64,000 bases of DNA, taken from contig JAUCBJ010009115.1 in assembly GCA_032718475.1 (NCBI GenBank), positions 41,087 through 105,086 of the forward strand, in the 5' to 3' direction. The translations under genes and the position numbers were made by a program. The notes beneath the pieces were generated by a model that was not told where the DNA came from, did no database searches, and saw nothing but the letters and a program-made list of their open reading frames with translations. The stretch comes from Nemertoderma westbladi. Taxonomy: Eukaryota > Animalia > Xenacoelomorpha. Numbering within the stretch: the first letter of the stretch is position 1; every line of letters begins with the position of its first letter. Shown in pieces: positions 910 to 23,200 of the stretch.

Positions 910-1015
910 AGATGCTTCGGGGTTTTTCGACGCAGAGAAATCCCGACTGTTGATGGAAATGGACGAACTGAGAGAGCAGAAGAAAAAGTCGGATGGAAAC
1001 TTTCGGCTCATGCTG
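910..1015 (+). CDS. JAKMIP: Internal coding exon A of a JAKMIP-family coiled-coil protein (DASGFFDAEKSRLLMEMDELREQKKKSDGNFRLML)
   Basis: T-rich acceptor ending TTTAG at 908-909, open frame from 911, donor CTG|GTAAAT at 1016, phase 0 join to the next exon. Resembles the recalled JAKMIP1 segment FDGERLRLQQEILELKAAKKQAE. Confidence 0.8.
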
Positions 1016-4000
1016 GTAAATATTTTACCATAAATATAGAAGCTGGTAAATATTGTACCACAAATATATAAGCTGGTAAATATTGTACCATAAATATAGA
1101 AGCTGGTAAATATTGTACCACAAATATAGAAGATGGTAAATATTGTACCACAAATATATGAGCTGGTAAATATTGTACCACAAATATATAAGCTGGTACT
1201 TATTGTACCACAAATATATAAGCTGGTAAATATTGTACCACAAATATAGAAGCTGGTAAATATTGTACCACAAATATAGAAGCTGGTAATTATTGTACCA
1301 CAAATATAGAAGCTTCTAAATATTGTACCACAAATATATAAGCTGGTAAATATTGCACCACAAATATAGAAGCTGGTAAATATTGTACCACAAATATAGA
1401 AGCTTGTAAATATTGTACCACAAATATATAAGTTGGCAAATATTGTACCACAAATATAGAAGCTGGTAAATATTGTTCCACAAATATAGAAGTTGGTACT
1501 TATTGTACCACAAATATATAAGCTGGTACTTATTGTACCACAAATATAGAAGCTGGTAAATATTGTACCACAAATACAGAAGCTGGTAAATATTGCACCA
1601 CAAATATAGAAGCCGTTAAATATTGTACCACAAATATAGAAGCTGGTAAATATTGTACCACAAATATAGAAGCTGGTAAATATTGAACCACAAATATAGA
1701 AGCTGGTAATTATTGTACCACAAATATAGAAGCTTCTAAATATTGTACCACAAATATATAAGCTGGTAAATATTGCACCACAAATATAGAAGCTGGTAAA
1801 TATTGCACCACAAATATAGAAGCTGGTTAATATTGCACCACAAATATATAAGCTGGTAAATATTGTACCACAAATATAGAAGCTGGTAAATATTGTACCA
1901 CAAATATAGAAGCTTGTAAATATTGTACCACAAATATATAAGTTGGCAAATATTGTACCACAAATATAGAAGCTGGTAAATATTGCACCACAAAAAATAT
2001 ATAAGCTGGTAAATATTGCACCACAAATATATAAGCTGGTAAATATTGTACCACAAAAATAAAAGCTGGTAAATATTGTACCACAAATATAGAAGCTGGT
2101 AAATATTGTACCACAAATATAGAAGCTGGTAAATATTGTACCACAAATATATAAGCTGGTAAAAATTGTACCACAAATATAGAAGCTGGTAAATATTGTA
2201 CCACAAATATAGAAGCTGGTAAATATTGAACCACAAATAAAGAAGCTGGTAATTATTGTACCACAAATATAGAAGCTTCTAAATATTGTACCACAAATAT
2301 ATAAGCTGGTAAATATTGCACCACAAATATAGAAGCTGGTAAATATTGTACCACAAATATAGAAGCTTGTAAATATTGTACCACAAATATAGAAGCTGGT
2401 AAATATTGTACCACAAATATATAAGCTGGTAAATATTGTACCACAAATATATAAACTGTTAAATATTGTACCACAAATATAGAAGCTGGTAAATATTACA
2501 CCACAAATATAGAAGCTGGTAAATATTGCACCACAAATATAGAAGCTGGTTAATATTGCACCACAAATATATAAGCTGGTAAATATTGTACCACAAATAT
2601 AGAAGCTGGTAAATATTGTACCACAAATATAGAAGCTTGTAAATATTGTACCACAAATATATAAGTTGGCAAATATTGTACCACAAATATAGAAGCTGGT
2701 AAATATTGCACCACAAAAAATATATAAGCTGGTAAATATTGCACCACAAATATATAAGCTGGTAAATATTGTACCACAAAAATAAAAGCTGGTAAATATT
2801 GTACCACAAATATAGAAGCTGGTAAATATTGTACCACAAATATAGAAGCTGGTAAATATTGTACCACAAATATATAAGCTGGTAAAAATTGTACCACAAA
2901 TATATAAGCTGGTAAAAATTGTACCACAAATATATAAGCTGTTAAATATTGCACCACAAATATATAAGCTGGTAAATATTGTACCACAAATATATAAGCT
3001 GGTAAATATTGCACCACAAATATAGAAGCTGGTAAATATTGTACCACAAATATAAAAGCTGGAAAATATTGTACCACAAATATAGAAGCTGGTAAATATT
3101 GCACCACAAATATAAAAGATGGTAAATATTGTACCACAAATATAGAAGCTGGTAAATATTGTACCACAAATATATAAGCTGGTAAATATTGTACCACAAA
3201 TATAGAAGCTGGTAAATATTGTACCACAAATATATAAGCTGTTAAATCTTGCACCACAAATATATAAGCTGGTAAATATTGTACCACAAATATAAAAGCT
3301 GGTAAATATTGCACCACAAATATAGAAGCTGGTAAATATTGCACCACAAATATAAAAGATGGTAAATATTGTACCACAAATATAGAAGCTGGTAAATATT
3401 GTACCACAAATATATAAGTTGGTAAATATTGTACCACAAATATAGAAGCTGGTAAATATTGCACCACAAAAATTATATAAGCTGGTAAATATTGCACCAC
3501 AAATATATAAGCTGGTAAATATTGTACCACAAATATAAAAGCTGGTAAATATTGTACCACAAATATAGAAGCTGGTAAATATTGTACCACAAATATAAAA
3601 GTTGGTAAATATTGTACCACAAATATAAAAGCTGGAAAATATTGTACCACAAATATAGAAGCTGGTAAATATTGCACCACAAATATAAAAGATTGTAAAT
3701 ATTGTACCACAAATATAGAAGCTGGTAAATATTGTACCACAAATATATAAGCTGGTAAATATTGCACCACAAATATAGAAGCTGGTAAATATTGCACCAC
3801 AAATATAGAAGCTGGTAAATATTGCACCACAAATATAGAAGCTGGTAAATATTGCACCACAAATATAGAAGCTGGTAAATATTGCACCACAAATATATAA
3901 GCTGGTAAATATTTCACCACAAATATATAAGCTAGTAAATATTGCACCACAAATATATAAGCTGGTAAATATTGTACCACAAATATAGAAGTTTGTAAAT

Positions 4001-7000
4001 ATTGCACCACAAATATAGAAGCTGGTAAATATTGCACCACAAATATAGAAGCTGGTAAATATTGCACCACAAATATATAAGCTGGTAAATATTGCACCAC
4101 AAATATATAAGCTGGTAAATATTGCACCACAAATATATAAGCTGGTAAATATTGTACCACAAATATAGAAGCTTGTAAATATTGCACCACAAATATAGAA
4201 GCTGGTAAATATTGCACCACAAATATAGAAGCTGGTAAATATTGCACCACAAATATATAAGCTGGTTAATATTGTACCACAAATATAGAAGCTTGTAAAT
4301 ATTGCACCACAAATATAGAAGCTGGTAAATATTGCACCACAAATATAGAAGATGGTACTTATTGCACCACAAATATATAAGCTGGTAAATATTGCACCAC
4401 AAATATAGAACATGGTACTTATTGCACCACAAATATATAAGCTGGTAAATATTGCACCACAAATATAGAAGCTGGTAAATATTGTACCACAAATATATAA
4501 GCTGGTTAATATTGTACCACAAATATAGAAGCTGGTAAATATTGTACCACAATTATATAAGCTGCTAAATATTGTACCACAAATATATAAGCTGGTAAAT
4601 ATTGTACCACAAATATAGAAGCTGGTAAATATTGTACCACAAATATAGAAGCTGGTAAATATTGCACCACAAATATAGAAGATGGTACTTATTGCACCAC
4701 AAATATATAAGCTGGTAAATATTGCACCACAAATATAGAAGATGGTACTTATTGCACTACAAATATAGAAGTTGGTAAATATTGTACCACAAATATAGAA
4801 GCTGGTAAATATTGTACCACAAATATAGAAGCTGGTAAATATTGCACCACAAATATAGAAGATGGTACTTATTGCACTACAAATATAGAAGTTGGTAAAT
4901 ATTGCACCACAAATATAGAAGATGGTACTTATTGCACTACAAATATAGAAGTTGGTAAATATTGTACCACAAATATAGAAGCTGGTAAATATTGTACCAC
5001 AAATATAGAAGCTGGTAAATATTGCACCACAAATATAGAAGATGGTACGTATTGCACCACAAATATAGAAATTGGTAAATATTGTACTACAAATATAGAA
5101 GCTGGTACTTATTGTACCATACATATATAAGCTGGTAAATATTGTACCACAAATATAGAAGCTGGTAAATATTGCACCACAAATATATAAGCTGCTAAAT
5201 ATTGTACCACAAATATATAAGCTGGTAAATATTGCACTACAAATATATAAGCTGGTACTTATTGTACCACAAATATAGAAGCTGGTAAATATTGTACCAC
5301 AAATATAGAAGCTGGTAAATATTGTACCACAAATATAAAAGCTGGTAAATATTGCACCACAAATATAGAAGCTGGTAAATATTGTACCACAAATATATAA
5401 GCTGCTAAATATTGTACCACAAATATATAAGCTGGTAAATATTGCACCACAAATATAGAAGCTGGTACTTATTGTACCACAAATATAGAAGCTGGTAAAT
5501 ATTGTACCACAATATAGAAGCTGGTAAATATTGTACCACAAATATAGAAGCTGGTAAATATTGCACCACAAATATAGAAGATGGTACTTATTGCACCACA
5601 AATATAGAAGTTGGTAAATATTGTACCACAAATATAGAAGCTGGTAAATATTGTACCACAAATATAGAAGCTGGTAAATATTGCACCACAAAACAGAAGA
5701 TGGTACTTATTGCACCACAAATATAGAAGTTGGTAAATATTGTACCACAAATATAGAAGCTGGTAAATATTGTACCACAAATATAGAAGCTGGTAAATAT
5801 TGTACCACAAATATAGAAGCTGGTAAATATTGTACCACAAATATAGAAGCTGGTAAATATTGCACCACAAATATAGAAGATGGTACTTATTGCACCACAA
5901 ATATAGAAGTTGGTAAATATTGTACCACAAATATAGAAGCTGGTAAATATTGTACCACATTATAGAAGCTGGTAAATATTGCACCACAAAATAGAAGATG
6001 GTACTTATTGCACCACAAATATAGAAGATGGTACTTATTGCACCACAAATATAGAAGCTGGTAAATATTGCACCACAAATATAGAAGATGGTACTTATTG
6101 CACCACAAATATAGAAGTTGGTAAATATTGTACCACAAATATAGAAGCTGGTAAATATTGTACCACAAATATAGAGGCTGGTAAATATTGTACCACAAAT
6201 ATAGAAGCTGGTAAATATTGCACCACAAATATAGAAGATGGTACTTATTGCACCACAAATATAGAAGTTGGAAAATATTGTACCACAAATATAGAAGCTG
6301 TTAAATATTGTACCACAGATATAGAAGCTGGTAAATATTGCACCACAAAATAGAAGATGGTACTTATTGCACCACAAATATAGAAGTTGGTAAATATTGT
6401 ACCACAAATATATAAGCTGGTACTTATTGTACCACAAATATATAAGCTGGTAAATATTGTACCACAAATATAGAAGCTGGTAAATATTGCACCACAAATG
6501 AAAAAGCTGGTAAATATTGCACCACAAATATAGAAGCTGGTAAATATTACACCACAAATATAGAAGCTGCTAAATATTGTACCACAAATATATAAGCTGG
6601 TAAATATTGCACCACAAATATATAAGCTGGTAAATATTGTACCACAAATATAGAAGCTGGTAAATATTGTACCACAAATATAGAAGCTGGTAAAAATTGT
6701 ACCGCAAATATAGAAGCTGGTAGATATTGCACCACAAAATAGAAGATGGTACTTATTGCACCACAAATATAGAAGATGGTACTTATTGCACCACAAATAT
6801 AGAAGCTGGTAAATATTGTACCACAAATATATAAGCTGGTAAATATTGTACCACAAATACAGAAGCTGGTAAATATTGTACCACAAATATAGAAGCTGGT
6901 AAATATTGCACCACAAATGAAAAAGCTGGTAAATATTGCACCACAAATATAGAAGCTGGTAAATATTGTACCACAAATATAGAAGCTGGTAAATATTGTA

Positions 7001-9256
7001 CCACAGATATAGAAGCTGGTAAATATTGTACAACAAATATAGAAGCTGGTAAATATTGTACCACAAATATAGAAGCTGGTAAATATTGCACCACAAATGA
7101 AAAAGCTGGTAAATATTGCACCACAAATATAGAAGATGGTACTTATTGCACCACAAATATAGAAGCTGGTAAATATTGTACCACAAATATATAAGCTGGT
7201 AAATATTGTACCACAAATATAGAAGCTGGTAAATATTGTACCACAAATATAGAAGCTTGTAAATATTGTACCACAAATATAGAAGCTGGTAAATATTGCA
7301 CCACAAATATAGAAGATGGTACTTATTGCACCACAAATATAGAAGTTGGTAAATATTGCACCACAAATATAGAAGCTGGTAAATATTGTACCACAAATAT
7401 AGAAGCTGGTAAATATTGCACCTCAAAATAGAAGATGGTTCTTATTGCACCACAAATATAGAAGTTGGTAAATATTGTACCACAAATATATAAGCTGGTA
7501 CTTATTGTACCACAAATATATAAGCTGGTAAATATTGTACCACAAATATAGAAGCTGGTAAATATTGCACCACAAATGAAAAAGCTGGTAAATATTGCAC
7601 CACAAATATAGAAGCTGGTAAATATTACACCACAAATATAGAAGCTGCTAAATATTGTACCACAAATATATAAGCTGGTAAATATTGCACCACAAATATA
7701 TAAGCTGGTAAATATTGTACCACAAATATAGAAGCTGGTAAATATTGTACCACAAATATAGAAGCTGGTAAAAATTGTACCACAAATATAGAAGCTGGTA
7801 GATATTGTACCACAAATATAGAAGCTGGTAAATATTGTACCACAAATATAGAAGCTGGTAAATATTGCACCACAAATGAAAAAGCTGGTAAATATTGCAC
7901 CACAAATATACAAGCTGGTAAATATTGTACCACAAATATAGAAGCTGGTAAATATTGTACCACAAATATATAAGCTGGTAAATATTGCACCACAAATATA
8001 TAAGCTGGTAAATATTGTACCACAAATATAGAAGCTGGTAAATATTGTACCACAAATATAGAAGCTGTTAAAAATTTGGACCACAAATATAGAAGCTGGT
8101 AGATATTGCACCACAAAATAGAAGATGGTACTTATTGCACCACAAATATAGAAGATGGTACTTATTGCACCACAAATATAGAAGATGGTACTTATTGCAC
8201 CACAAATATAGAAGCTGGTAAATATTGTACCACAAATATATAAGCTGGTAAATATTGTACCACAAATATAGAAGCTGGTAAAAATTGTACCACAAATATA
8301 GAAGCTGGTAGATATTGCACCACAAAATAGAAGATGGTACTTATTGCACCACAAATATAGAAGATGGTACTTATTGCACCACAAATATAGAAGTTGGTAA
8401 ATATTGTACCACAAATATAGAAGCTGGTAAATATTGTACCACAAATATAGAAGCTGGTAAATATTGTACCACAAATATAGAAGCTGGTAAATATTGTACC
8501 ACAAATATAGAAGATGGTACTTATTGCACCACAAATATAGAAGTTGGTAAATATTGTTCCACAAATATAGAAGCTGGTAAATATTGTACCACAGATATAG
8601 AAGCTGGTAAATATTGCACCACAAAATAGAAGATGGTACTTATTGCACCACAAATATAGAAGTTGGTAAATATTGTACCACAAATATATAAGCTGGTACT
8701 TATTGTACCACAAATATATAAGCTGGTAAATATTGTACCACAAATATAGAAGCTGGTAAATATTGTACCACAAATATATAAGCTGGTAAATATTGCACCA
8801 CAAATATATAAGCTGGTAAATATTGCACCACAAATATATAAGCTGGTAAATATTGTACCACAAATATAGAAGCTGGTAAATATTGTACCACAAATATAGA
8901 AGCTGGTAAAAATTGTACCACAAATATAGAAGCTGGTAGATATTGCCCCACAAATATAGAAGCCGGTAAATATTGCACCACAAATATAGAAGCTGGTAAA
9001 TATTGCACCACAAATATAGAAGCTGGTAAAAATTTACCACAAATATAGAAGCCGGTAAATATTGCACAACAAATATAGAAGCCAGTAAATATTGCACCAC
9101 AAATATAGAAGCTGGTAAATATTGCACCACAAATATAGAAGCTGGTAAAAATTGTACCACAAATATAGAAGCTGGTAAAAATTGTACCACAAATATAGAA
9201 GCCGGTAAATATTGCACCACAAATATAGAAGCCGGTAAATATTGCACCATATAGAA
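1012..9256 (+). repeat. 30-bp minisatellite, ~275 units, consensus GCTG|GTAAATATTGYACCACAAATATAKAA; unit spans the exon A donor site
   Basis: The 30-nt period is directly visible. The first unit starts at the exon's last 4 nt (1012-1015) and the array fills nearly all of intron 1016-9330. Confidence 0.98.
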
Positions 9257-9330
9257 TACATATACATATAAAATATTTACTTATACATTACAAATTTACT
9301 TATACATTAAACTACAAAATTATCTTACAG

Positions 9331-9435
9331 CAAGCCAACAAAGAGAAAACCGAAGAGATACGAACCATGATGAAAGACCACAAAAAGGAACTGGAAAGAT
9401 TGAAAAAATCCGCGGAATTGGATGTTAGAAAGTTG
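9331..9435 (+). CDS. JAKMIP: Coding exon B (QANKEKTEEIRTMMKDHKKELERLKKSAELDVRKL)
   Basis: Acceptor TCTTACAG (AG 9329-9330), 35 open codons, donor TTG|GTGAGT, phase 0/0. Resembles recalled JAKMIP QADKTKAADLR...HQDEVHRIKRECERDIRRL. Confidence 0.88.
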
Positions 9436-9560
9436 GTGAGTTCAGTTCAATAGGAACAAAATTCTCAACGTTTATTTATACTGTATAAACACTAACTGTA
9501 CATGTAAATTGATTGTTGTTTATGTATCACAGCAATTAAAAAACTATTTATAAATTTCAG

Positions 9561-9836
9561 ATCGATGAAATGAGAGAGAAAGACAAGTACATAACGTTCT
9601 TGGAGAAAGAACTGGGAAAACATTCCAACGACTTTCTGTTTCTCTTAAATCAACGGGATTCCGGGAAGAAATCTTTCAATTCCTTCCTGGACGCGCTGAC
9701 CAACCGGAGTAGAAGTCGATCGGTGCAGCGAGCGCCCCGGAGTATGAGCAGAAGTCCGGGGAGGTTCGGGATCGGGAACTTTCCGAGTCCGGTTCGGTTC
9801 GGTAGCAAACCTAGTCGGTCGTTGAGTCGGACGAAG
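9561..9836 (+). CDS. JAKMIP: Coding exon C (IDEMREKDKYITFLEKELGKHS... followed by an R/S/P-rich segment)
   Basis: Acceptor TTTCAG (AG 9559-9560), 92 open codons matching track ORF 9570-9905, donor AAG|GTGAGT at 9837. Resembles recalled JAKMIP MDEIKGKDRVILALEKELG. Confidence 0.88.
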
Positions 9837-9945
9837 GTGAGTCGGTTACCATGGCAGCATAGAAAGTATGAAAGGTACAAACGCGATAAAACAAGTTGTA
9901 TTTAGAAATCAGATGGTGAATTCCGAGTAATAAATTATTTTACAG

Positions 9946-10065
9946 ACCTATTCTTATGATGACGACAAATCGCGACGCGTTCAGAACAAAATGGCGGAAC
10001 TTAAAGTGAATAACTACAGATTGGAAGCAGCCAATCAGGATCTTCGAGACTACATTAACCAATTA
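9946..10065 (+). CDS. JAKMIP: Coding exon D (TYSYDDDKSRRVQNKMAELKVNNYRLEAANQDLRDYINQL)
   Basis: Acceptor TTTTACAG (AG 9944-9945), 40 open codons, donor TTA|GTAAGT. Resembles recalled JAKMIP [36 protein letters not shown]. Confidence 0.88.
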
Positions 10066-10083
10066 GTAAGTAAATATGGAATA

Positions 10084-10430
10084 TCTAATCTAATATATAT
10101 AAATCTGCTCAGTTTGTATGTAAATTTGTATGTAAATTTGTATGTATGTATGTCCATCGATACACGTCGTCAGATTTCGCTCTCACTACTTGCTTTGTGG
10201 CTCATTCGATGCGTATTAACACGATGCAGACAGCTGTCACTGTCTCCGGGTTTTATTTTACACGTTTGTTTGCGTGAATGCGTATTTTGTGTTCGTTTGG
10301 ACGAAATTTATCGAATTATTTCGGTTCTTCAATCGGTAATAAACTATTTAGGAGAGTAACATAAATATGACATATGAATATAATAAATATGACATATTCA
10401 CCAAGCACGATCGAATTGGCCTATTGTTAG
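10084..10430 (+). mobile_element. Putative short non-autonomous Helitron-like element
   Basis: Starts A|TCTAATCTAATATATATAAA, the same 5' end as the element at 10694. It contains a TGTA microsatellite and ends with a weak hairpin (CCAA...TTGG) then TTAG|T. The 3' end is uncertain. Confidence 0.4.
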
Positions 10431-10693
10431 TGAATAGGGAAGGATTTTTTCTGTATCATAGCAACGTTAAGGTAATTATTGAACTCGCAGCTAGCTGGTC
10501 ACAGATAAGGAGCAAGCCAGGCTGGAGTGTTGATTAGGGTGGGTTGTCTGTGCGAACTGTCCAAGAGTAATTCTGCTTTCTCTATCAATGGCTGCATGGA
10601 AGGAGAGGTTTATAACAGTTTAGCTATTTTATTGTTTTACTGTAGTAAAGTGATTATTTCTGTAGGCCTTCTTACTGTATTATTATTATTTTA

Positions 10694-11977
10694 TCTAATC
10701 TAATATACCGGTATATAAAAATCAATTGTCTGTGTGTCTGTTTGTCATCGGCTATACAATCGAACCATCTCGATGAAATCTCGCTTGCTATAGCTCGTTA
10801 GAAAGGTCTCCCCCTAACTCGTTGCAACGTAATATTCAGAGCCGTATGAAGTTCCGCCATCTGCCGCTAGAGGGTGAATTGCCTTAAGTGAAAATCTTCT
10901 CTAACTTTGTTATTTACAATCCGTTTAAGATAAAACTTTGCAGGTGTCTAATTTAGCCAACACTGCATTTTTACAGAGACGCAGATAAATCTGCATTTCT
11001 CCAATCTGCCGCTAGAGGGTGAAATCACTGAAAGTGACCACCTTCTCCAACTTCGTTATTTACAATCCGTTTAGACTGGTACTTGGTAGGCCTATATTAC
11101 AGCTATATCTTTATGGAGTCTTAGAGTCGTATACGGTTCCCCTGTCTGCCGCTAGAGGGCGAATTGTCTGATAGTGAAAACCTGATCTCATTTCGTTGTT
11201 TTTAATTCTATTCAGCTGAAACTTGGTAGGTATCTACTACAGCATAGGCTCAATCTTTACGGAGTCGCTGAGTCGTCTATAATTCCCCAGTCTTCAGCTA
11301 GAGGGCGAAATGTCTGAAAGTGAACATCTTCTCCAACTTTGTTATTTACTGTCCGTTTAGACTGAAACTTGGTAGGCATCTATTACAGCATAGGCTATAA
11401 CTTTATGGAGTCTTAAGAGTCGTCTACAGATCCCCGTCTACCGCTAGAGGGCGAATTGTCTGGTAGTGAAACCTGATCTCATTTGGTTGTTTTTAATCCT
11501 TTTCAGCTGAAACTTGGTAGGTATCTACTACAGCATAGGCTCAATCTTTCCGGAGTCGCTGAGTCGTCTCTAGTTCCCCAGTCTGCAGCTAGAGGGCGAA
11601 ATGTCTCAAAGTGAACATTTTCTCGAAATTTTGTTATTTACATCTGTTTAAGCTGAAAACTGACAAGCAGGCATATTACTTCACTTTACCATAAACTCCA
11701 TCTTTACACAACTGCAGCGCCATCTGCATTTCAAGCAGTCTGCAGGTAGAGGGTAAAATGTCCGAAAGTGATCATTTTCTCGAAATTAGGTTATATACTA
11801 TAAGCCGAAGCTAAAGTTGAAACTTGACAGTTATCTCCTATGGGGTGGTGTTTTATTTTATGATGGTGTCTGTTTTGTTGTAGTTCTCCAATCTGCGACA
11901 CATTTCTCCACACATATTCATATATCCTCTGCACGTGCACTAGAAAGCTGTGGCCCGAAGGGCCACAGGCTTTTTAG
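10694..11977 (+). mobile_element. Non-autonomous Helitron-like element with internal ~146-bp tandem repeats
   Basis: 5' A|TC start and TGTC-type microsatellite. A perfect GC-rich hairpin CTGTGGCCC-GAA-GGGCCACAG (11948-11968) lies 5 nt before a TTAG|T end (canonical end is CTRR). No target-site duplication is seen. Confidence 0.65.
10855..11830 (+). repeat. Diverged ~146-bp tandem repeat, about 7 copies, partly alternating A/B types
   Basis: A motif close to CTGCCGCTAGAGGGYGAA recurs at ~10861, 11006, 11146, 11292, 11438, 11583 and 11740. Confidence 0.85.
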
Positions 11978-12170
11978 TTTATATAATAAATTTATAAAAA
12001 CTAGAATTTAAACAGAACCATTAAGTATAATTGAGCCGAAATTACTGTAAGCCTATATTTAATTAACCACAGATAATGATATGATAATATGATAATTTGA
12101 TAATTCGAAATTGCATTTTAAGAACGTAAAACGAAAAATGTAAATAAATATAATTATGAATAATTGGAAA

Positions 12171-15100
12171 TCTTTTTTTATGTCTGGAATGAAGGAATGC
12201 CTGTTCACCGCCATAGGTGATCTTCCACAGTAAACCCTAACACTCTGTTTCTTAAAGGAATGCCTGTTCACCATCATGGGTGATCTTCCACAGTAAACCC
12301 TTCCACTCTGTTTCCTAACGGAGTGCCTGTTCACCACCATTGGTGATCTTCCTCAGTAAACCCTTCCACTCTGTTTCCTAACGGAGTGCCTGTTCACCAC
12401 CATTGGTGATCTTCCACAGTAAACCCTTCCACTCTGTTTCCTAAAGGAATGTCTGTTCACCACCATGGGTGATCTTCCACTGTAAACCCTAACACTCTGT
12501 TTCTTAAAGGAATGCCTGTTCACCACCATGGGTGATCTTCCTCAGTAAACCTTTCCACTCTGTTTCCTAAAGGAATGCCTGTTCACCGCCATAGGTGATC
12601 TTCCACAGTAAACCCTAACACTCTGTTTCTTAAAGGAATGCCTGTTCACCGCCATAGGTGATCTTCCACAGTAAACCCTAACACTCTGTTTCTTAAAGGA
12701 ATGCCTGTTCACCACCATGGGTGATCTTCCTCAGTAAACCTTTCCACTCTGTTTCCTAAAGGAATGCCTGTTCACCGCCATAGGTGATCTTCCACAGTAA
12801 ACCCTAACACTCCGTTTCTTAAAGGAATGCCTGTTCACCACCATGGGTGATCTTCCACAGTAAACCCTTCCACTCTGTTTCCTAAAGGAATGTCTGTTCA
12901 CCACCATGGGTGATCTTCCACTGTAAACCCTAACACTCTGTTTCTTAAAGGAATGCCTGTTCACCACCATGGGTGATCTTCCTCAGTAAACCTTTCCACT
13001 CTGTTTCCTAAAGGAATGCCTGTTCACCGCCATAGGTGATCTTCCACAGTAAACCTAACACTCTGTTTCTTAAAGGAATGCCTGTTCACCACCATGGGTG
13101 ATCTTCCACAGTAAACCCTTCCACTCTGTTTCCTAAAGGAATGCCTGTTCACCGCCATAGGTGATCTTCCACAGTAAACCCTAACACTCTGTTTCTTAAA
13201 GGAATGCCTGTTCACCACCATGGGTGATCTTCCACAGTAAACCCTTCCACTCTGTTTCCTAAAGGAATGCCTGTTCACCGCCATAGGTGATCTTCCACAG
13301 TAAACCCTAACACTCTGTTTCTTAAAGGAATGCCTGTTCACCACCATGGGTGATCTTCCTCAGTAAACCTTTCCACTCTGTTTCCTAAAGGAATGCCTGT
13401 TCACCGCCATAGGTGATCTTCCACAGTAAACCCTAACACTCTGTTTCTTAAAGGAATGCCTGTTCACCACCATGGGTGATCTTCCTCAGTAAACCTTTCC
13501 ACTCTGTTTCCTAAAGGAATGCCTGTTCACCGCCATAGGTGATCTTCCACAGTAAACCCTAACACTCTGTTTCTTAAAGGAATGCCTGTTCACCACCATG
13601 GGTGATCTTCCACAGTTAACCCTTCCACTCTGTTTCCTAAAGGAATGTCTGTTCACCACCATGGGTGATCTTCCACAGTAAACCCTAACACTCTGTTTCT
13701 TAAAGGAATGCCTGTTCACCACCATGGGCGATCTTCCTCAGTAAACCTTTCCACTCTGTTTCCTAAAGGAATGCCTGTTCACCGCCATAGGTGATCTTCC
13801 ACAGTAAACCCTAACACTCTGTTTCTTAAAGGAATGCCTGTTTACCACCATGGGTGATCTTCCACAGTAAACCCTTCCACTCTGTTTCCTAAAGGAATGC
13901 CTGTTCACCGCCATAGGTGATCTTCCACAGTAAACCCTAACACTCTGTTTCTTAAAGGAATGCCTGTTCACCACCATGGGTGATCTTCCTCAGTAAACCT
14001 TTCCACTCTGTTTCCTAAAGGAATGCCTGTTCACCGCCATAGGTGATCTTCCACAGTAAACCCTAACACTCTGTTTCTCTTAAAGGAATGCCTGTTCACC
14101 ACCATGGGTGATCTTCCTCAGTAAACCTTTCCACTCTGTTTCCTAAAGGAATGCCTGTTCACCGCCATAGGTGATCTTCCACAGTAAACCCTTCCACTCT
14201 GTTTCCCAAAGGAATGCCTGTTCACCACCATGAGTGATCTTCCACAGTAAACCCTAACACTCTGTTTCTTAAAGGAATGCCTGTTCACCACCATGGGTGA
14301 TCTTCCTCAGTAAACCTTTCCACTCTGTCTCCTAAAGGAATGCCTGTTCACCGCCATAGGTGATCTTCCACAGTAAACCCTAACACTCTGTTTCTTAAAG
14401 GAATGCCTGTTCACCACCATGGGTGATCTTCCACAGTAAACCCTTCCACTCTGTTCCCTAAAGGAATGCCTGTTCACTACCATGGGTGATCCTAACCCTT
14501 CCACTCTGTTTCTTAAAGAAATGTCTGTTCACCGCCATAGGTGATCTTCCACAGTAAACCCTAACACTCTGTTTCTTAAAGGAATGCCTGTTCACCACCA
14601 TGGGTGATCTTCCACAGTAAACCCTTCCACTCTGTTTCCTAAAGGAATGTCTGTTCACCACCATGGGTGATCTTCCACAGTAAACCCTAACACTCTGTTT
14701 CTTAAAGGAACGCCTGTTCACCACCATGGGTGATCTTCCACAGTAAACCCTTCCACTCTGTTTCCTAAAGGAATGTCTGTTCACCACCATGGGTGATCTT
14801 CCACAGTAAACCCTAACACTCTGTTTCTTAAAGGAATGCCTGTTCACCACCATGGGTGATCTTCCACATTAAACCGTTCCACTCTGTTTCCTAACGGAGT
14901 GCCTGTTCACCACCATTGGTGATCTTCCACAGTAAACCCTAACACTCTGTTTCTTAAAGGAATGCCTGTTCACCACCATGGGTGATCTTCCACAGTAAAC
15001 CCTTCCACTCTGTTTCCTAACGGAGTGCCTGTTCACCACCATTGGTGATCTTCCACAGTAAACCCTAACACTCTGTTTCTTAAAGGAATGCCTGTTCACC

Positions 15101-17252
15101 ACCATGGGTGATCTTCCACAGTAAACCCTAACACTCTGTTTCTTAAAGGAATGCCTGTTCACCACCATGGGTGATCTTCCCCAGTAAACCCTTCCACTCT
15201 GTTTCTTAAAGGAATGCCTGTTCACCACCATGGGTGATCTTCCACAGTAAACCCTTCCACTCTGTTTCCTAAAGGAATATCTGTTCACCACTATGGGTGA
15301 TCTTCCACAGTAAACCCTAACACTCTGTTTCTTAAAGGAATGCCTGTTCACCACCATGGGTGATCTTCCACAGTAAACCCTAACACTCTGTTTCTTAAAG
15401 AAATGCCTGTTCACCACCATGGGTGATATTCCACAGTAAACCCTAACACTCTGTTTCTTAAAGGAATGCCTGTTCACCACCATGGGTGATCTTCCACAGT
15501 AAACCCTTCCACTCTGTTTCTTAAAGGAATGCCTGTTCACCACCATGGGTGATCTTCCACAGTAAACCCTAACACTCTGTTTCTTAAAGGAATGCCTGTT
15601 CACCACCATGGGTGATCTTCCACAGTAAACCCTTCCACTCTGTTTCCTAAAGGAATGTCTGTTCACCACCATGGGTGATCTTCCACAGTAAACCCTAACA
15701 CTCTGTTTCTTAAAGGAATGCCTGTTCACCACCATGGGTGATCTTCCACAGTAAACCCTAACACTCTGTTTCTTAAAGGAATGCCTGTTCACCACCATGG
15801 ATGGGTGATCTTCCACAGTAAACCCTTCCACTCTGTTTCCTAAAGGAATGCATGTTCACCGCCATGGGTGATCTTCCACAGCAAACCCTTCCACTCAGTT
15901 TCCTAACGGAGTGCCTGTTCACCACCATTGGTGATCTTCCACAGTAAATCCTAACACTCTGTTTCTTAAAGGAATGCCTGTTCACCACCATGGGTGATCT
16001 TCCACAGTAAACCCTTCCACTCTGTTTCTTAAAGGAATGCCTGTTCACCACCATGGGTGATCTTCCACAGTAAACCCTTACACTCTGTTTCCTAACGGAG
16101 TGCCTGTTCACCACCATTGGTGATCTTCCACAGTAAACCCTTCCACTCTGTTCCCTAAAGGAATGCCTGTTCACTACCATGGGTGATCCTAACCCTTCCA
16201 CTCTGTTTCTTAAAGAAATGTCTGTTCACCACCATGGGTGATCTTCCACAGTAAACCCTTCCACTCTGTTTCTTAAAGGAATGCCCGTTCACCACCATGG
16301 GTGATCTTCCACAGTAAACCCTTCCACTCTGTTCCCTAAATGAATCTCTGTTTACCTCCATGGGTGATCTTCCAGAGTAAACCCTTCCACTCTTTTCCCT
16401 AAATGAATGTCTGTTTACCTACATTGGTGATCTTCCACAGTAAACCCTTCCATTCTGTTTCCCAAAGGAATGCCTGTTCAGCCACCATGGGTGATCTTCC
16501 ACAGTAAATCCCTCCACTCTGTTTCCTAAGGGAATGCATTTTCACCACCATGGGTGATCTTCCACAGTAAACCCTTCCACTCTGTTCCCTAAAGGAATGC
16601 CTGTTCACTACCATGGGCGATCCTAACCCTTCCACTCTGTTTCTTAAAGAAATGTCTGTTCACCACCATGGGTGATCTTCCACAGTAAACCCTTCCACTC
16701 TGTTTCTTAAAGGAATGCCCGTTCACCACCATGGGTGATCTTCCACAGTAAACCCTTCCACTCTGTTCCCTAAATGAATCTCTGTTTACCTCCATGGGTG
16801 ATCTTCCACAGTAAACCCTTCCACTCTGTTTCCTAAATGAATGTCTGTTTACCTCCATTGGTGATCTTCCACAGTAAACCCTTCCACTCTGTTTCCCAAA
16901 GGAATGCCTGTTCAGCCACCATGGGTGATCTTCCACAGTAAATCCCTCCACTCTGTTTCCTAAGGGAATGCATTTTCACCACCATGGGTGATCTTCCACA
17001 GTAAACCCTTCCATTCTGTTTCCCAAAGGAATGCCTGTTCAGCCACCATGGGTGATCTTCCACAGTAAATCCCTCCACTCTGTTTCCTAAGGGAATGCAT
17101 TTTCACCACCATGGGTGATCTTCCACAGTAAACCCTTCTACTCTGTTTCCTAAAGGAATGCCTGTTCACCACCATAGGATCAAAGCCGGGGTTGGGCTAA
17201 GCTGCATTTAAAACACTGCTGCCCCATCTAGGGATCGAACCAAGGCCTACTG
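12171..17252 (-). mobile_element. Putative 5'-truncated tRNA-derived SINE whose body is tandemly amplified
   Basis: On the minus strand: B-box GGTTCGATCCC (17241-17231), ~50 nt unique sequence, the 63-bp array, then an A7 tail (T7 at 12173-12179). It is flanked by the direct repeat ATTGGAAA (12163-12170 and 17253-17260). No A-box is seen. Confidence 0.5.
12192..17178. repeat. 63-bp minisatellite, ~79 units, with a 126-bp dimer tendency (CCCTAACACTCTGTTTCTT / CCCTTCCACTCTGTTTCCT)
   Basis: The 63-nt period is directly visible (GGAATGCC at 12194 and 12257). Units are more diverged at the right end. Confidence 0.97.
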
Positions 17253-17458
17253 ATTGGAAACTAAGGAATATTGTTTATTATTTATACAAAGATTGACTAA
17301 GTACCCTTCAACCATTTACCGAAAGACTGACATACCGAACAACATTTATTATTTCATATTTTGCACATGCAACATTGTATCGGCTTACTATTGCCCTGTA
17401 AAGTACAATAATTAAATTTTACATATTATATAGGAACACATTTGATTTCCCCCAATAG

Positions 17459-17618
17459 TGTCGGCAGCTAGAGGAAGTGGGCGGTGTAGTTCCCTCCCAG
17501 ACACCATTCTGTCTCAGAGACACCTCCACCTCCGGTGGATCTACGCCCATGTTCACTCCAATAACCGCTATACATCGCCTGAACACTTCAGTGGATGAGG
17601 TCTTTAGTTACCCCACAG
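17459..17618 (+). CDS. JAKMIP: Coding exon E (CRQLEEVGGVVPSQTPFCLRDTSTSGGSTPMFTPITAIHRLNTSVDEVFSYPT)
   Basis: Acceptor TTTCCCCCAATAG (AG 17457-17458), 53 codons + 1 nt, donor CAG|GTTAGT. It is a GC-richer island. The phase 0 start continues the heptad pattern YINQL-CRQLEE and the phase 1 end matches exon F. Confidence 0.75.
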
Positions 17619-18989
17619 GTTAGTTGTAATGCCTTAACCGCTGGTTGGTACCAGTTATTAAATATTGACAATTATTAAAGACTAATCTAATTGTGGTTCC
17701 GCATGTTATGTATTCATTAGCATATTATTTAATTTGAGACATGTGGTAGGCCTACCAAAATACAGTAGGCCCTAATACTGTAGGCATGGTACGTTCCGGC
17801 TACCGTTATCACAGTATGTCAGAAGTACATTCCTTTGTACTGTATAACTTTCCCCTTTTGGTAGACCCCCTAATCATACTAAATTCACCGTGCTTAAAAA
17901 CAGGGAAGCACTAATTGAATTTGGGACGTGCTGTAAGTAGGAAAAGGATCGGGTTACGGATTGGGGGAACCAAAACAATAAACTACAATTAAAACATGTT
18001 ACAAGATTATGCAGGTTAGTTAAGGGTTAAAAAATCATGAAAATACTGAATTTTGCAGATAGTGGCGCACATTGACGGCAAGTGAAAATTGTGATCGTCA
18101 GCGCAAATTGTCCGCAAGGAAAATAAAGTATCGTTTATTGTTTTGTTTAGAAAGCACGGCCACTATAATAAAATTTTTCAATTTTTGTGTTTGCGGTCAT
18201 TTTGCGACATTGTTTCGAATTTTGACAGCATTGCTCCGTGGTGTGGGAGAAATACTGTAGCTCTTAAGAAGGAGAGTTTCCCCATGATTATATTTGCCTC
18301 CCCGGCTAAAGTGTAAGTAGGCCCTAACAACTAACTGCCCGGGGGGGGGGGGGGGGGGTGTCTACAGGGGATGAGTTAACATACAACACCGGTACAAGAG
18401 CAGTAGTGTAGTTCACTCCTACATTAGTGGTCAAGGAAATGGTTTCAACATAACATTTATGTAGGCCTATCTGTACACGCTCGTGGGGCCTTCGTGCAGC
18501 ACGAGGCTCAGTTATGAGATACAAATTAAAATTGGGCAATTCTATCACAAAATCGGTATTTAAGAAATTAACCAAACCGCAAATACATCATAGAGGGGAA
18601 AGTTGCTCGCTTTCAACCCCCTCTTAATCTGCACCCCAACCCAAAGGCGCACAGACAGAGGATTGATGGCAGGCAGGTATTAACAGAAAATTGGTGTTTT
18701 AGAAGTAATATATTTTAGGTGTGGAGGCGACCCAATTTGTAAGAATTATTATAACTTACAGTACTACAATACCTTATGCCGTTTAGTATTGATACTGAAA
18801 TATTAATTTACCATGTCGATGTCTCAACAAAATTATTTAGCTATATTTATTCTACAGAATCTCCATTAAATACTCGGCCAATCATTTTGCGAGATAAACA
18901 ATAAGCAAGCTGTGTTATTAGTCTGTGGCCTAACACTATTGCCTGTCCTACATAATTAAACTTTGCTGGAATCGTGGTGAGGCGGAACT

Positions 18990-19350
18990 GGTTGGACTGA
19001 TTCATAGCCCGTCAAACACACCGGATGTGTTTTAGCACATATCTGAGAAGTACGTTTCAGCTAAATCAGTGATTGCACTTTGAGATATATCGTCCTCTAG
19101 CGGCAGCCTAGAGAACTGCAGACAGATGAGCCTCCTTTGAATGACACAGTTAATGATGTAGTACAAATATGCCAAGTTTCAGCTAGAACGGGTTTAAAGC
19201 AAAGAAATGTGAGGATATTTAATGTCTAGACATGTAGCCCTCTAGCGAGACACTGATGATTTGATGGTATCTGAAAGTCCCCAAAGAAACTAAACTTATG
19301 GTCTTATTGATGCCTAACTAATTTTCAACTCTACAGCGTTAAATCCGACG
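18990..19350 (-). repeat. Degraded, reverse-oriented relative of the ~146-bp CCGCTAGAGGG repeat family (TE remnant)
   Basis: CCTCTAGCG occurs at ~19094 and ~19239 (about 145 bp apart). CAAGTTTCAGCT (~19172) is the reverse complement of AGCTGAAACTTG seen in the 11.2-11.5 kb units. Confidence 0.5.
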
Positions 19351-19997
19351 AAGTTATAAGTAAGCCAAAATCGTAGCGTCAATGATGACATACAGTAACA
19401 TTATTGAATGAACTATTTGCCATAATAATTGAGCTACCCCCCTAAGAGATAGCGTCAGTTCGCAAAGGCTCCGCCAACTTCGTGGCTCGGACCCTATACC
19501 CCATGCTATAAATGTATTCGTTCGATATACAATCATACATTAAGCCGCTAGGTGGTGTCAAATTATTATTCTGCAATTTTGTACTTGTACAGTACAGCAG
19601 TACCGTACCGGTAGGCAGTAGGCCTATTGCTTTGGAGTCTCTAGTGGATCCCCAATTAGATGTCAATCAATTTCGTAAAAGATAGACTTTATGATTCTCT
19701 ACAAGCAACCAAAATTTCAGCTCTGGAAAATAAAGCGTTCCCGAGAAATTTAACAATTTCTAAAAACCACATACAGTAATCTGTCGTAGCTGACGTCAGA
19801 CTTTACAAAAGTTTGACACCAAACTTTACAAATTTTCTAAACATTCCCTCTAATACTAAGTATGGTTTAACTCCGAACCAGCAATGCCGCGAAATTTGCG
19901 ATCAAACATTTACCAGCCAGACGGAAATGCTCCATTTGCCCTATAAACAAATACTGTACAGTGTAATAGACTCACCCGTTATATTTAATGCTTTCAG

Positions 19998-20221
19998 TTG
20001 ACCATCCAAGGCCATACCACTTGTCTCCAGGGACCAGTAGGCGGAGGGGCGGCAGTAGGTCCAGGTCCCGTTCGCCCATGGTAACCGGTAAACCAAAACT
20101 GCCAACACAACCCATTACTATGGTGGACGTTGAAAAAGAAATGCTCCGACTAAAAAACCACTTCCATGATCAATTCGCGACCATACAAGAAATAACAGAT
20201 ACAATTCCAGCAGACCCTGAT
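19998..20221 (+). CDS. JAKMIP: Coding exon F (VDHPRPYHLSPGTSRRRGGSRSRSRSP...EKEMLRLKNHFHDQFATIQEITDTIPADPD), drawn to the first of many possible donors
   Basis: Acceptor CTTTCAG (AG 19996-19997); phase 1 start agrees with exon E (G+TT = Val); first donor GAT|GTAAGT at 20222. The 3' boundary is ambiguous because the donor is tandemly repeated. Confidence 0.8.
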
Positions 20222-23200
20222 GTAAGTATACAAGAAATAACAGATACAATACCGGCAGACCCTGATGTAAGTATACAAGAAATAACAGATACAATAACAG
20301 CAGACCCTGATGTAAGTATACAAGAAATAACAGATACAATAACAGCAGACCCTGATGTAAGTATACAAGAAATAACAGATACAATAACAGCAGACCCTGA
20401 TGTAAGTATACAAGAAATAACAGATACAATAACAGCAGACCCTGATGTAAGTATACAAGAAATAACAGATACAATAACAGCAGACCCTGATGTAAGTATA
20501 CAAGAAATAACAGATACAATACCAGCAGACCCTGATGTAAGTATACAAGAAATAACAGATACAATACCAGCAGACCCTGATGTAAGTATACAAGAAATAA
20601 CAGATACAATAACAGCAGACCCTGATGTAAGTATACAAGAAATAACAGATACAATACCGGCAGACCCTGATGTAAGTATGCAAGAAATAACAGATACAAT
20701 AACAGCAGACCCTGATGTAAGTATACAAGAAATAACAGATACAATAACAGCAGACCCTGATGTAAGTATACAAGAAATAACAGATACAATAACAGCAGAC
20801 CCTGATGTAAGTATACAAGAAATAACAGATACAATAACAGCAGACCCTGATGTAAGTATACAAGAAATAACAGATACAATAACAGCAGACCCTGATGTAA
20901 GTATACAAGAAATAACAGATACAATACCAGCAGACCCTGATGTAAGTATACAAGAAATAACAGATACAATACCAGCAGACCCTGATGTAAGTATACAAGA
21001 AATAACAGATACAATAACAGCAGACCCTGATGTAAGTATACAAGAAATAACAGATACAATAACAGCAGACCCTGATGTAAGTATACAAGAAATAACGGAT
21101 ACAATACCGGCAGACCCTGATGTAAGTATACAAGAAATAACAGATACAATACCGGCAGACCCTGATGTAAGTATACAAGAAATAACGGATATAATAACAG
21201 CAGACCCTGATGTAAGTATACAAGAAATAACAGATACAATACCAGCAGACCCTGATGTAAGTATACAAGAAATAACGGATACAATACCGGCAGACCCTGA
21301 TGTAAGTATACAAGAAATAACGGATACAATACCGGCAGACCCTGATGTAAGTATACAAGAAATAACAGATACAATACCGGCAGACCCTGATGTAAGTATA
21401 CAAGAAATAGCAGATACAATACCAGCAGACCTTGATGTAAGTATACAAGAAATAACAGATACAATAACAGCAGACCCTGATGTAAGTATACAAGAAATAA
21501 CAGATACAATAACAGCAGACCCTGATGTAAGTATACAAGAAATAACAGATACAATACCAGCAGACCCTGATGTAAGTATACAAGAAATAACAGATACAAT
21601 ACCGGCAGACCCTGATGTAAGTATACAAGAAATAACGGATACAATACCGGCAGACCCTGATGTAAGTATACAAGAAATAACAGATACAATACCGGCAGAC
21701 CCTGATGTAAGTATACAAGAAATAACAGATACAATACCAGCAGACCTTGATGTAAGTATACAAGAAATAACAGATACAATAACAGCAGACCCTGATGTAA
21801 GTATACAAGAAATAACAGATACAATAACAGCAGACCCTGATGTAAGTATACAAGAAATAACAGATACAATACCAGCAGACCCTGATGTAAGTATACAAGA
21901 AATAACAGATACAATACCGGCAGACCCTGATGTAAGTATACAAGAAATAACGGATACAATACCGGCAGACCCTGATGTAAGTATACAAGAAATAACAGAT
22001 ACAATACCGGCAGACCCTGATGTAAGTATACAAGAAATAGCAGATACAATACCAGCAGACCTTGATGTAAGTATACAAGAAATAACAGATACAATAACAG
22101 CAGACCCTGATGTAAGTATACAAGAAATAACAGATACAATAACAGCAGACCCTGATGTAAGTATACAAGAAATAACAGATACAATACCAGCAGACCCTGA
22201 TGTAAGTATACAAGAAATAACAGATACAATACCGGCAGACCCTGATGTAAGTATACAAGAAATAACGGATACAATACCGGCAGACCCTGATGTAAGTATA
22301 CAAGAAATAACAGATACAATACCGGCAGACCCTGATGTAAGTATACAAGAAATAACAGATACAATACCAGCAGACCTTGATGTAAGTATACAAGAAATAA
22401 CAGATACAATAACAGCAGACCCTGATGTAAGTATACAAGAAATAACAGATACAATAACAGCAGACCCTGATGTAAGTATACAAGAAATAACAGATACAAT
22501 ACCAGCAGACCCTGATGTAAGTATACAAGAAATAACAGATACAATACCGGCAGACCCTGATGTAAGTATACAAGAAATAACGGATACAATACCGGCAGAC
22601 CCTGATGTAAGTATACAAGAAATAACAGATACAATAACAGCAGACCCTGATGTAAGTATACAAGAAATAACAGATACAATACCAGCAGAAACTGATGTAA
22701 GTATACAAGAAATAACACATACAATAACAGCAGACCCTGATGTAAGTATACAAGAAATAACAGATACAATACCAGCAGACCCTGATGTAAGTATACAAGA
22801 AATAACAGATACAATAACAGCAGACCCTGATGTAAGTATACAAGAAATAACAGATACAATACCAGCAGACCCTGATGTAAGTATACAAGAAATAACAGAT
22901 ACAATAACAGCAGACCCTGATGTAAGTATACAAGAAATAACAGATATAATAACAGCAGACCCTGATGTAAGTATACAAGAAATAAAAGATACAATAACAG
23001 CAGACCCTGATGTAAGTATACAAGAAATAACAGATACAATACCAGCAGACCCTGATGTAAGTATACAAGAAATAACAGATACAATTCCAGCAGAAACTGA
23101 TGTAAGTATACAAGAAATAACAGATACAATAACAGCAGACCCTGATGTAAGTATACAAGAAATAACAGATACAATACCAGCAGACCCTGATGTAAGTATA

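Follow-up and report, generated by a model that had tools for sequence, protein, structure and literature searches.

Two unrelated, probable splice donor-spanning minisatellites in a predicted gene of Nemertoderma westbladi

Two tandem arrays in a predicted gene of Nemertoderma westbladi, with units of 30 and 45 bp, were found to start inside the 3′ ends of two predicted exons and to extend into the introns that follow, repeating the splice donor in most of their units. We consider it most probable (roughly 0.7) that both are donor-spanning minisatellites, or "mirages", which would have arisen by chance local duplication, been tolerated through use of the first donor, and then expanded. The class is already known; size alone (8 kb and over 43 kb) makes these arrays stand out. 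The window analyzed is a 64,000-nucleotide stretch of contig JAUCBJ010009115.1 (assembly GCA_032718475.1), and its features are collected in Table 1.

Table 1. Predicted exons and tandem arrays of the gene, in window coordinates
Feature	Position	Strand	Remarks
Exon 1 of those visible, predicted, internal	910..1015	+	106 nt; AG/GT flanks, open frame, GC 48% vs 10% upstream
30-bp donor-spanning array	1012..9256	+	275 units; TRF: 1012-9249, 274.6 copies, 91% matches
Remainder of intron 1	9257..9330	+	74 nt, of which 9257-9311 is a 19-bp x 2.8 repeat
Exon 2, predicted	9331..9435	+	Charged, coiled-coil-like
Exon 3, predicted	9561..9836	+	Charged part, then Arg/Ser-rich
Exon 4, predicted	9946..10065	+	Coiled-coil-like
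63-bp array	12192..17175		79 copies, ~5 kb, in intron 4; TRF
Exon 5, predicted	17459..17618	+	Ser/Thr/Pro-rich; codon bias weakest of the exons
Exon 6, predicted	19998..20221	+	224 nt; final 39 nt belong to the first unit of the 45-bp array
45-bp donor-spanning array	20183..64000	+	972 units tiled; TRF: 20183-63999, 974.6 copies, 95% matches

The six predicted exons, with GT-AG boundaries throughout, join into an ab initio model of 330 codons without a stop, while the other frames contain 19 and 20 stops. Codon-position bias was detected in the joined exons (p = 0.013; two intron controls gave 0.70 and 0.51), and exon GC contents of 39–54% contrast with 10–36% in the 70 nt upstream. The exon following exon 6 lies beyond the window, and splicing at the 20222 donor is a prediction. 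A Pfam scan of all six exons gave no match above threshold, that of exon 4 to DUF2205 falling below it (E = 0.067). Single-exon searches for homologues of exons 3, 4, and 6 found none; for exon 3, where longer proteins were included, the best score in one search was 0.89. There were three database matches to exon 3, and the two examined were unrelated Thr/Ser-rich repeat proteins. Among metagenome contigs, 593 pattern matches yielded no confirmed relative of exon 3, and a 24-nt probe of the 45-mer had no exact match. ARAGORN and Rfam (at gathering score) detected nothing over positions 1–21000, and a tRNA-like reading of 17200–17290 was set aside as being without Rfam support.

The 30-bp array has a sharp left edge 4 nt inside predicted exon 1, the last 4 nt of the exon forming the start of the array. 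Each unit consists of 4 exon and 26 intron nucleotides, with the donor CTG/GTAAATAT (the slash marks the exon-intron boundary). The exonic share of this array is thus just those 4 bases. Reading through from exon 1 meets a stop at 1031, 5 codons inside the intron, and stops in the frame of the exon are present in 184 of the 259 full-length units. With a single 30-bp unit, intron 1 would be about 100 nt long, comparable to the array-free introns 2 (125 nt, after exon 2) and 3 (109 nt, after exon 3). The 45-bp array also has a sharp left edge, 39 nt inside predicted exon 6; its unit is made up of 39 exon and 6 intron nucleotides, with the donor GAT/GTAAGTAT, and GTAAGT is intact in 955 units. 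The count of 972 units is a lower bound, because the array leaves the window and contains a 100-N gap at 41134–41233. Runs of 21–39 identical units recur within it at lags of 60–148 units, as predicted by block duplication. The two units are unrelated to one another, with a best cross-match of 7 nt, and no copies of either were found elsewhere within the window (best match 10 nt). Both the unrelatedness of the arrays and their course from inside an exon 3′ end into the intron had been claimed in the original prediction and are borne out; its further claim of a GT donor in each unit holds for most units (255/275 and 963/972) but not for all.

Both arrays of the original prediction are real, but it left unmentioned a 63-bp array and four smaller arrays (19, 12, 146, and 36 bp) in the same gene. 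The 63-bp array serves as an internal control, lying within intron 4 at distances of 2126 nt (donor) and 283 nt (acceptor) and overlapping no junction, and none of the four smaller arrays overlaps a junction either. The donor arrays are therefore two of three large arrays or two of all seven, leaving 5/7 free of junctions; they are also the two largest arrays of the gene. The 63-mer was considered as an acceptor mirage and rejected, since an acceptor-like tract is present but no in-frame exon follows the last unit. Unit length modulo 3 was dropped as a signal because the junction-free 63-mer shares the multiple-of-3 length and because reading on from exon 1 already meets a stop within the first unit.

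Of the 4 and 12 GT candidates in the respective exon regions, the donors at 1016 and 20222 match U1 best, each at 9 of 11 positions, whereas competing GTs reach at most 4 and 6. The remaining four donors of the gene score 6, 7, 7, and 8. That both amplified donors are the top U1 matches of the six is a coincidence of about 1 in 15, spotted post hoc. Within the arrays, variant units at the successive donor positions number 13, 6, 5, 38, 39, and 9 for the 30-mer (median 4.5) and 4, 5, 0, 3, 5, and 0 for the 45-mer (median 3). The pseudo-donors in the array copies are not conserved, and the copies are without sign of coding constraint; stops, frameshifts, and GT-less variants are distributed through the arrays. 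GT-less units are spread from unit 11 to unit 236 and do not adjoin the exon. Acceptor tracts in the array units are poor, with pyrimidines making up a fraction of 0.28–0.5, and no new exon is evident.

Repeats of this kind have been described in human genes. The 37-bp unit of the VNTR in intron 7 (IVS7) of human F7 comprises the last 4 bases of the exon and 33 bases of the intron (Borensztajn et al. 2006, PMC1557585). As in the 30-mer, with its 4 + 26 split, the first unit spans the exon-intron boundary, and further copies of the donor follow within the intron. In F7 the upstream donor alone is used, whatever the copy number or the strength up to CV 91, in experiments covering up to 12 units (PMC1557585). 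By analogy with F7, the first donor is likely to be used in Nemertoderma westbladi as well; such use has been shown in F7 and is predicted here. The same report lists IFI 6-16, CBS IVS13, lamin B2, and PDGF intron 4 as further human donor-repeat genes (PMC1557585). The human cases have one array per gene, in contrast to two here. F7 carries 5–9 copies and the other genes no more than about 25, compared with 275 and at least 972 in the present gene. The copy numbers in Nemertoderma westbladi are thus 10–40 times the largest in the publications compared.

The closest invertebrate parallels are the mirage minisatellites of amphioxus, reported for the globins BflGb6 and BflGb9 (PMC3087553), for PGBD5 (PMC3902484), and for Adh3 (Canestro et al. 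2002, as cited in PMC3087553 and PMC3902484). These are likewise tandem duplications at exon-intron boundaries, with units of 10–160 bp and with the splice signal lost in some units. The arrays described here have head-to-tail units within that size range, a first unit spanning the boundary of a predicted exon, and the donor in most units. Lancelet PGBD5 even has two separate repeats, one of 60 bp and one of 108 bp, each located directly next to a 5′ splice site (PMC3902484), and so resembles the present gene in carrying two such repeats. Splicing is undisturbed by the lancelet mirages, which show length instability and homogenization (PMC3087553, PMC3902484). However, the globin and PGBD5 mirages have 2–7 units and affect donors and acceptors, whereas only donors are affected in this gene. 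Boundary-spanning internal tandem repeats are also numerous in human duplicated genes (162 alignments, 27 curated intron modifications; De Grassi and Ciccarelli 2009, PMC2812944), where they can make new introns via cryptic sites, a difference from the arrays here with their poor acceptor tracts. The giant introns of Drosophila fertility genes are similarly inflated by tandem repeats but measure megabases, with no link to a splice-donor unit noted in the available part of that source (PMC6508621).

We propose that each array originated in an ordinary local tandem duplication that probably covered the exon end and the splice donor by chance. Such a duplication would likely be tolerated because the spliceosome would choose the most upstream donor, with the exon and first donor intact. 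Tolerance of this kind was one of two options in the original prediction; it is consistent with the data and is backed by experiments on human F7 (PMC1557585). Unequal exchange or slippage would then likely have enlarged the duplication into a multi-kilobase intronic satellite. The occurrence of two events in one gene probably reflects a repeat-prone locus, with its seven arrays, whose introns were formerly short, and a further contributor to the coincidence may be that the window was picked from very many.

The apparent improbability of two donor arrays is mostly set by the choice of null. With random intronic positions, as the original prediction proposed, and present intron lengths, the probability of at least two is 0.0001–0.0004. 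This null is inflated because the arrays themselves lengthen the introns. Collapsing the arrays raises the probability to 0.005–0.01 for the three large arrays and 0.03–0.06 for all seven. With ancestral introns of 110–300 nt it becomes 0.07–0.98, a compact-ancestor null that has direct support from intron 1 only, introns 4 and 5 collapsing to about 1.9 and 2.3 kb and intron 6 ending outside the window. All of these values apply to one gene, chosen after the fact. In short introns a large share of the tolerated duplication sites overlap the donor: a tolerated 30-nt duplication in an intron of ~100 nt would span the donor 41% of the time and a 45-nt duplication in a 110-nt intron 55% of the time. 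Nevertheless, two of three large arrays at donors are still unlikely for one gene at collapsed lengths.

It is doubtful that donor-containing units were favored either at birth, through lesions at strong 5′ splice sites, or during growth, through the U1 site in each unit, so that strong donors would seed intronic satellites peculiar to the gene and giant in size (8 to over 43 kb), leaving the spliceosome to pick the foremost of roughly a thousand identical donors. The first of these routes, in which a transcription-coupled lesion (polymerase pausing, an R-loop, or a nick near the donor) directs the seeding duplications to 5′ splice sites before amplification, draws on the collapsed-null probability for the three large arrays, two of which start 4 and 39 nt from a donor, and on the amphioxus work, where the way in which the repeats arise is described as unclear and the phenomenon is suspected to be general (PMC3087553, PMC3902484). 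However, the two units sit differently on their junctions (−4 to +26 and −39 to +6), so there is no common breakpoint offset, lancelet mirages occur at 5′ and 3′ boundaries alike (PMC3087553, PMC3902484), the coincidence can be unremarkable under the compact-ancestor null, and the case is a single gene selected post hoc. We regard this route as unlikely. The process aimed at splice sites that the original prediction offered as its other option is not a likely origin and goes unsupported here, because the class is known, PGBD5 has two donor repeats of its own, 5/7 arrays lie off junctions, and the improbability depends on the null. Among titles and abstract openings, with subscription journals mostly outside coverage, we found no published genome-wide test of donor enrichment.

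U1 binding suppresses premature cleavage and polyadenylation in transcribed introns (telescripting). Duplications of random origin might therefore have been filtered during expansion, with units carrying strong U1 sites being able to reach tens of kilobases. On the sense strand, the top two U1 matches of the gene do lie in its two largest arrays, the 45-mer providing about 955 perfect GTAAGT sites across 43.8 kb. Against this, the donor positions show no extra conservation, there is little for U1 to suppress (AATAAA occurs 3 times in the 8.2 kb of the 30-bp array and 27 times in the 43.8 kb of the 45-bp array, compared with 4 times in the 2.4 kb of intron 5), and the 63-bp array grew to 5 kb although no U1 match in it exceeds 5/11. 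A filter of this type appears quite unlikely, and no paper linking U1 sites to array expansion was found among titles and abstract openings.

The 45-bp array could also be read as a giant coding repeat, with exon 6 continuing as a 15-residue acidic repeat of about 2,900 codons. Indeed, the exon 6 frame stays open for 2,905 codons beyond the donor, to 28937, the first 194 units contain no stop or frameshift, and no downstream exon is visible in the window. The open frame is automatic, however, because the unit comprises 39 in-frame exon bases plus GTAAGT. Synonymous variant types amount to 7/43 overall (22% expected, p = 0.46) and 5/21 in the proximal part (p = 0.51). Downstream, 20 stop units and 6 frameshifting units are spread through the array, and after the first frameshift there are again uninterrupted stretches of 166 and 192 clean units. 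The unit moreover ends exactly at a consensus donor, and GT sites scoring 9 or higher against U1 number 2 in the 4,669 nt of unique non-coding sequence. On the evidence of the stops, the frameshifts, and the lack of a synonymous excess, the 45-mer was rejected as constrained coding sequence, and a coding repeat is very unlikely.

Regulated use of the pseudo-donors as alternative donors, as a length dial for exon 6 and a nonsense switch for exon 1, is highly improbable: each 45-mer would add 15 in-frame residues, and human 6-16 and CBS do splice at the next one or two pseudo-sites (PMC1557585), but every later donor of exon 1 would take in the stop at 1031, the pseudo-donors lack conservation, and such a role would not need hundreds of copies.

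As donor-spanning minisatellites, these arrays present an annotation hazard, in that they yield long spurious in-frame ORFs such as the one beyond exon 6, and tests of enrichment call for arrays to be collapsed before shuffling. With roughly 970 strong, nearly identical donors following the authentic one, the gene would put first-donor selection to a much more severe test in nature than F7 does. If a genome-wide enrichment beyond tolerance were true, splicing or co-transcriptional events would be linked to the sites of tandem duplication, a mechanism that the amphioxus work left open (PMC3087553, PMC3902484).

Six predicted exons, GC-richer than their surroundings and flanked by AG and GT, make up the visible part of the predicted host gene. 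Joined, they read through 330 codons uninterrupted, whereas a script counted 19 and 20 stops in the alternative frames. Their codon-position bias has p = 0.013; two intron controls gave 0.70 and 0.51. The gene model is a middle piece whose start and end both lie outside the window. Its GT-AG introns, together with the minisatellites, suggest a eukaryotic and probably animal source. On our reading the predicted protein would be charged and coiled-coil-like, with Arg/Ser-rich stretches. Protein searches with single exons, which are weak queries when short, returned no homologue, and the gene may be lineage-restricted or fast-evolving.

Three large arrays dominate the window. The size of the 45-bp array is a lower bound because a 100-N scaffold gap lies within it. 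Self-comparison at the unit lag placed the left edge of the 30-bp array 4 nt within predicted exon 1 and that of the 45-bp array 39 nt within predicted exon 6, bearing out the original prediction that both start inside exon 3' ends and reach into the intron. The predicted donors are the top U1 matches of their exon regions, with 9/11 at exon 1 (≤4 at three other GT sites) and 9/11 at exon 6 (≤6 at 11 other GT sites). The frame of exon 1 closes five codons past the donor, so the exon must end there. The units are mutually unrelated, as had been claimed, sharing ≤7 nt, and neither has another copy within the window. A donor in every unit had also been proposed; this holds for most units but not literally for all, GT being kept in 255 of 275 30-mer and 963 of 972 45-mer units.

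Coordinates of predicted gene features, tandem arrays and neighboring elements
Feature	Position	Description	Source
Predicted exon 1	910-1015		
Predicted exon 2	9331-9435		
Predicted exon 3	9561-9836		
Predicted exon 4	9946-10065		
Predicted exon 5	17459-17618		
Predicted exon 6	19998-20221		
Predicted donor, exon 1	1016	CTG/GTAAATAT	
Predicted donor, exon 6	20222	GAT/GTAAGTAT	
30-bp array	1012-9249	274.6 copies	Tandem Repeats Finder
63-bp array (intron 4)	12192-17175	79.4 copies	Tandem Repeats Finder
45-bp array	20183-window end	974.6 copies	Tandem Repeats Finder
Smaller arrays		32, 19, 19, 12, 146, 36 bp	Tandem Repeats Finder
32-bp repeat	42-139	3 copies; units partly palindromic (inverted pairs)	
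19-bp repeat	9257-9311	2.8 copies	
146-bp array	10838-11798	about 7 units; 291-bp dimer	
B-box-like motif	17231-17241	minus strand	
Spaced pieces	about 19080-19250	near 19083 and 19228, 145 nt apart	
Open frame	20000-28939	2,979 codons; exon 6 + 194 repeat units	
Scaffold gap	41134-41233	100 N, inside 45-bp array	

Donor-spanning arrays account for two of the three large arrays, or two of the gene's seven. The donor nearest to the 63-bp array is 2,126 nt away and the nearest acceptor 283 nt; the gene's four smaller arrays are likewise away from junctions. Unit variants of the 63-bp array alternate, and each unit carries a pyrimidine-rich acceptor-like site (fraction 0.78), yet no junction is overlapped. 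A motif 55 nt from the end of this array resembles a tRNA B box, possibly a decayed SINE head; ARAGORN and Rfam gave the tRNA-type reading no support. The 146-bp array is older and diverged, and six of its units contain a motif resembling a CTCF core site; the spaced pieces in the table look, by eye, like reverse-strand copies of this family.

Human F7 has a 37-bp unit of 4 exon and 33 intron bases, and its most upstream functional donor is the only one used at any copy number (1-12 tested), also in competition with stronger downstream sites that fall short of perfect consensus; four further human genes of this anatomy are named there (PMC1557585). Boundary repeats are described as common in human duplicated genes (PMC2812944), and the available portion of PMC10078293, on repeats altering splicing, contains no donor-enrichment test. 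The most likely beginning for each array here is a local tandem duplication that spanned the end of the exon. This would leave the exon and first donor intact, with added copies landing in the intron; if the first donor is used as in F7, the copies would be nearly neutral and could grow as other minisatellites do where a locus is repeat-prone. We give these steps together a probability of about 0.7, and the tolerance filter originally offered as one option is supported.

Intron 1 owes its large size entirely to the 30-bp array; collapsed to one unit plus the 74-nt remainder, it measures ∼100 nt, similar to introns 2 and 3 (125 and 109 nt). The 19-bp repeat adjoins the array's right end and stops 19 nt short of the acceptor, so intron 1 is nearly all tandem repeat. 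Our null model let duplications start uniformly at any tolerated position, either spanning a donor or lying wholly inside the intron and clear of its last 30 nt. Under it, the probability of at least two donor-spanning arrays is 0.0001-0.0004 at present intron lengths. The use of present lengths, proposed in the original prediction, is wrong because the arrays themselves lengthen the introns. With arrays collapsed, the probability is 0.005-0.01 (three large arrays) or 0.03-0.06 (all seven); with all introns set to 600, 300 or 110 nt, it is 0.02-0.11, 0.07-0.37 or 0.6-0.98. Under this model a 30-mer seeded in a 100-nt intron would span the donor in 41% of cases. The low collapsed values (0.005-0.06) keep donor targeting in consideration, but all these values concern a single gene, chosen from very many for its appearance, and do not demonstrate the systematic, splice-site-targeted genesis that the geometry of both arrays had suggested. 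That donor units were favored at birth or in growth is unlikely, and a mutational process focused on donors is quite improbable.

Of the gene's six donors, the two that were amplified match U1 best, and the donor-bearing arrays are its two largest, which we count against the neutral-tolerance reading; U1-assisted expansion of the arrays is nonetheless more doubtful still. That the 45-mer is a coding repeat is less probable again. The exon 6 frame stays open through it for 2,905 codons because of the unit make-up, but there is no synonymous excess among its variant types (7/43, p = 0.46; proximal part 5/21, p = 0.51), in substitution counts that leave out units of other length (9/972; 16/275 for the 30-mer). 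Moreover, 20 units with stops and 6 frameshifting units have spread; past the first frameshift, too, there are clean stretches of 166 and 192 units. Stretches of 21-39 units reappear unchanged 60-148 units further on, a mark of block duplication. The 2,979-codon frame is likely prone to mis-annotation as a giant exon. Donor positions are as variable as, or more variable than, the remaining unit positions, and 30-mer units lacking GT are scattered along the array; regulated use of pseudo-donors is the least probable reading.

In amphioxus, such minisatellites are called mirages and occur at both exon boundaries; some units lack the signal, splicing is undisturbed and the origin is termed unclear (PMC3087553). 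In lancelet PGBD5, a 60-bp and a 108-bp repeat occur separately and both abut a 5' splice site (PMC3902484), so two events per gene are already published. The scale differs, with 275 and at least 972 units here and no more than about 25 in the published cases consulted. Both arrays belong to the known donor-spanning class, at unusual size.
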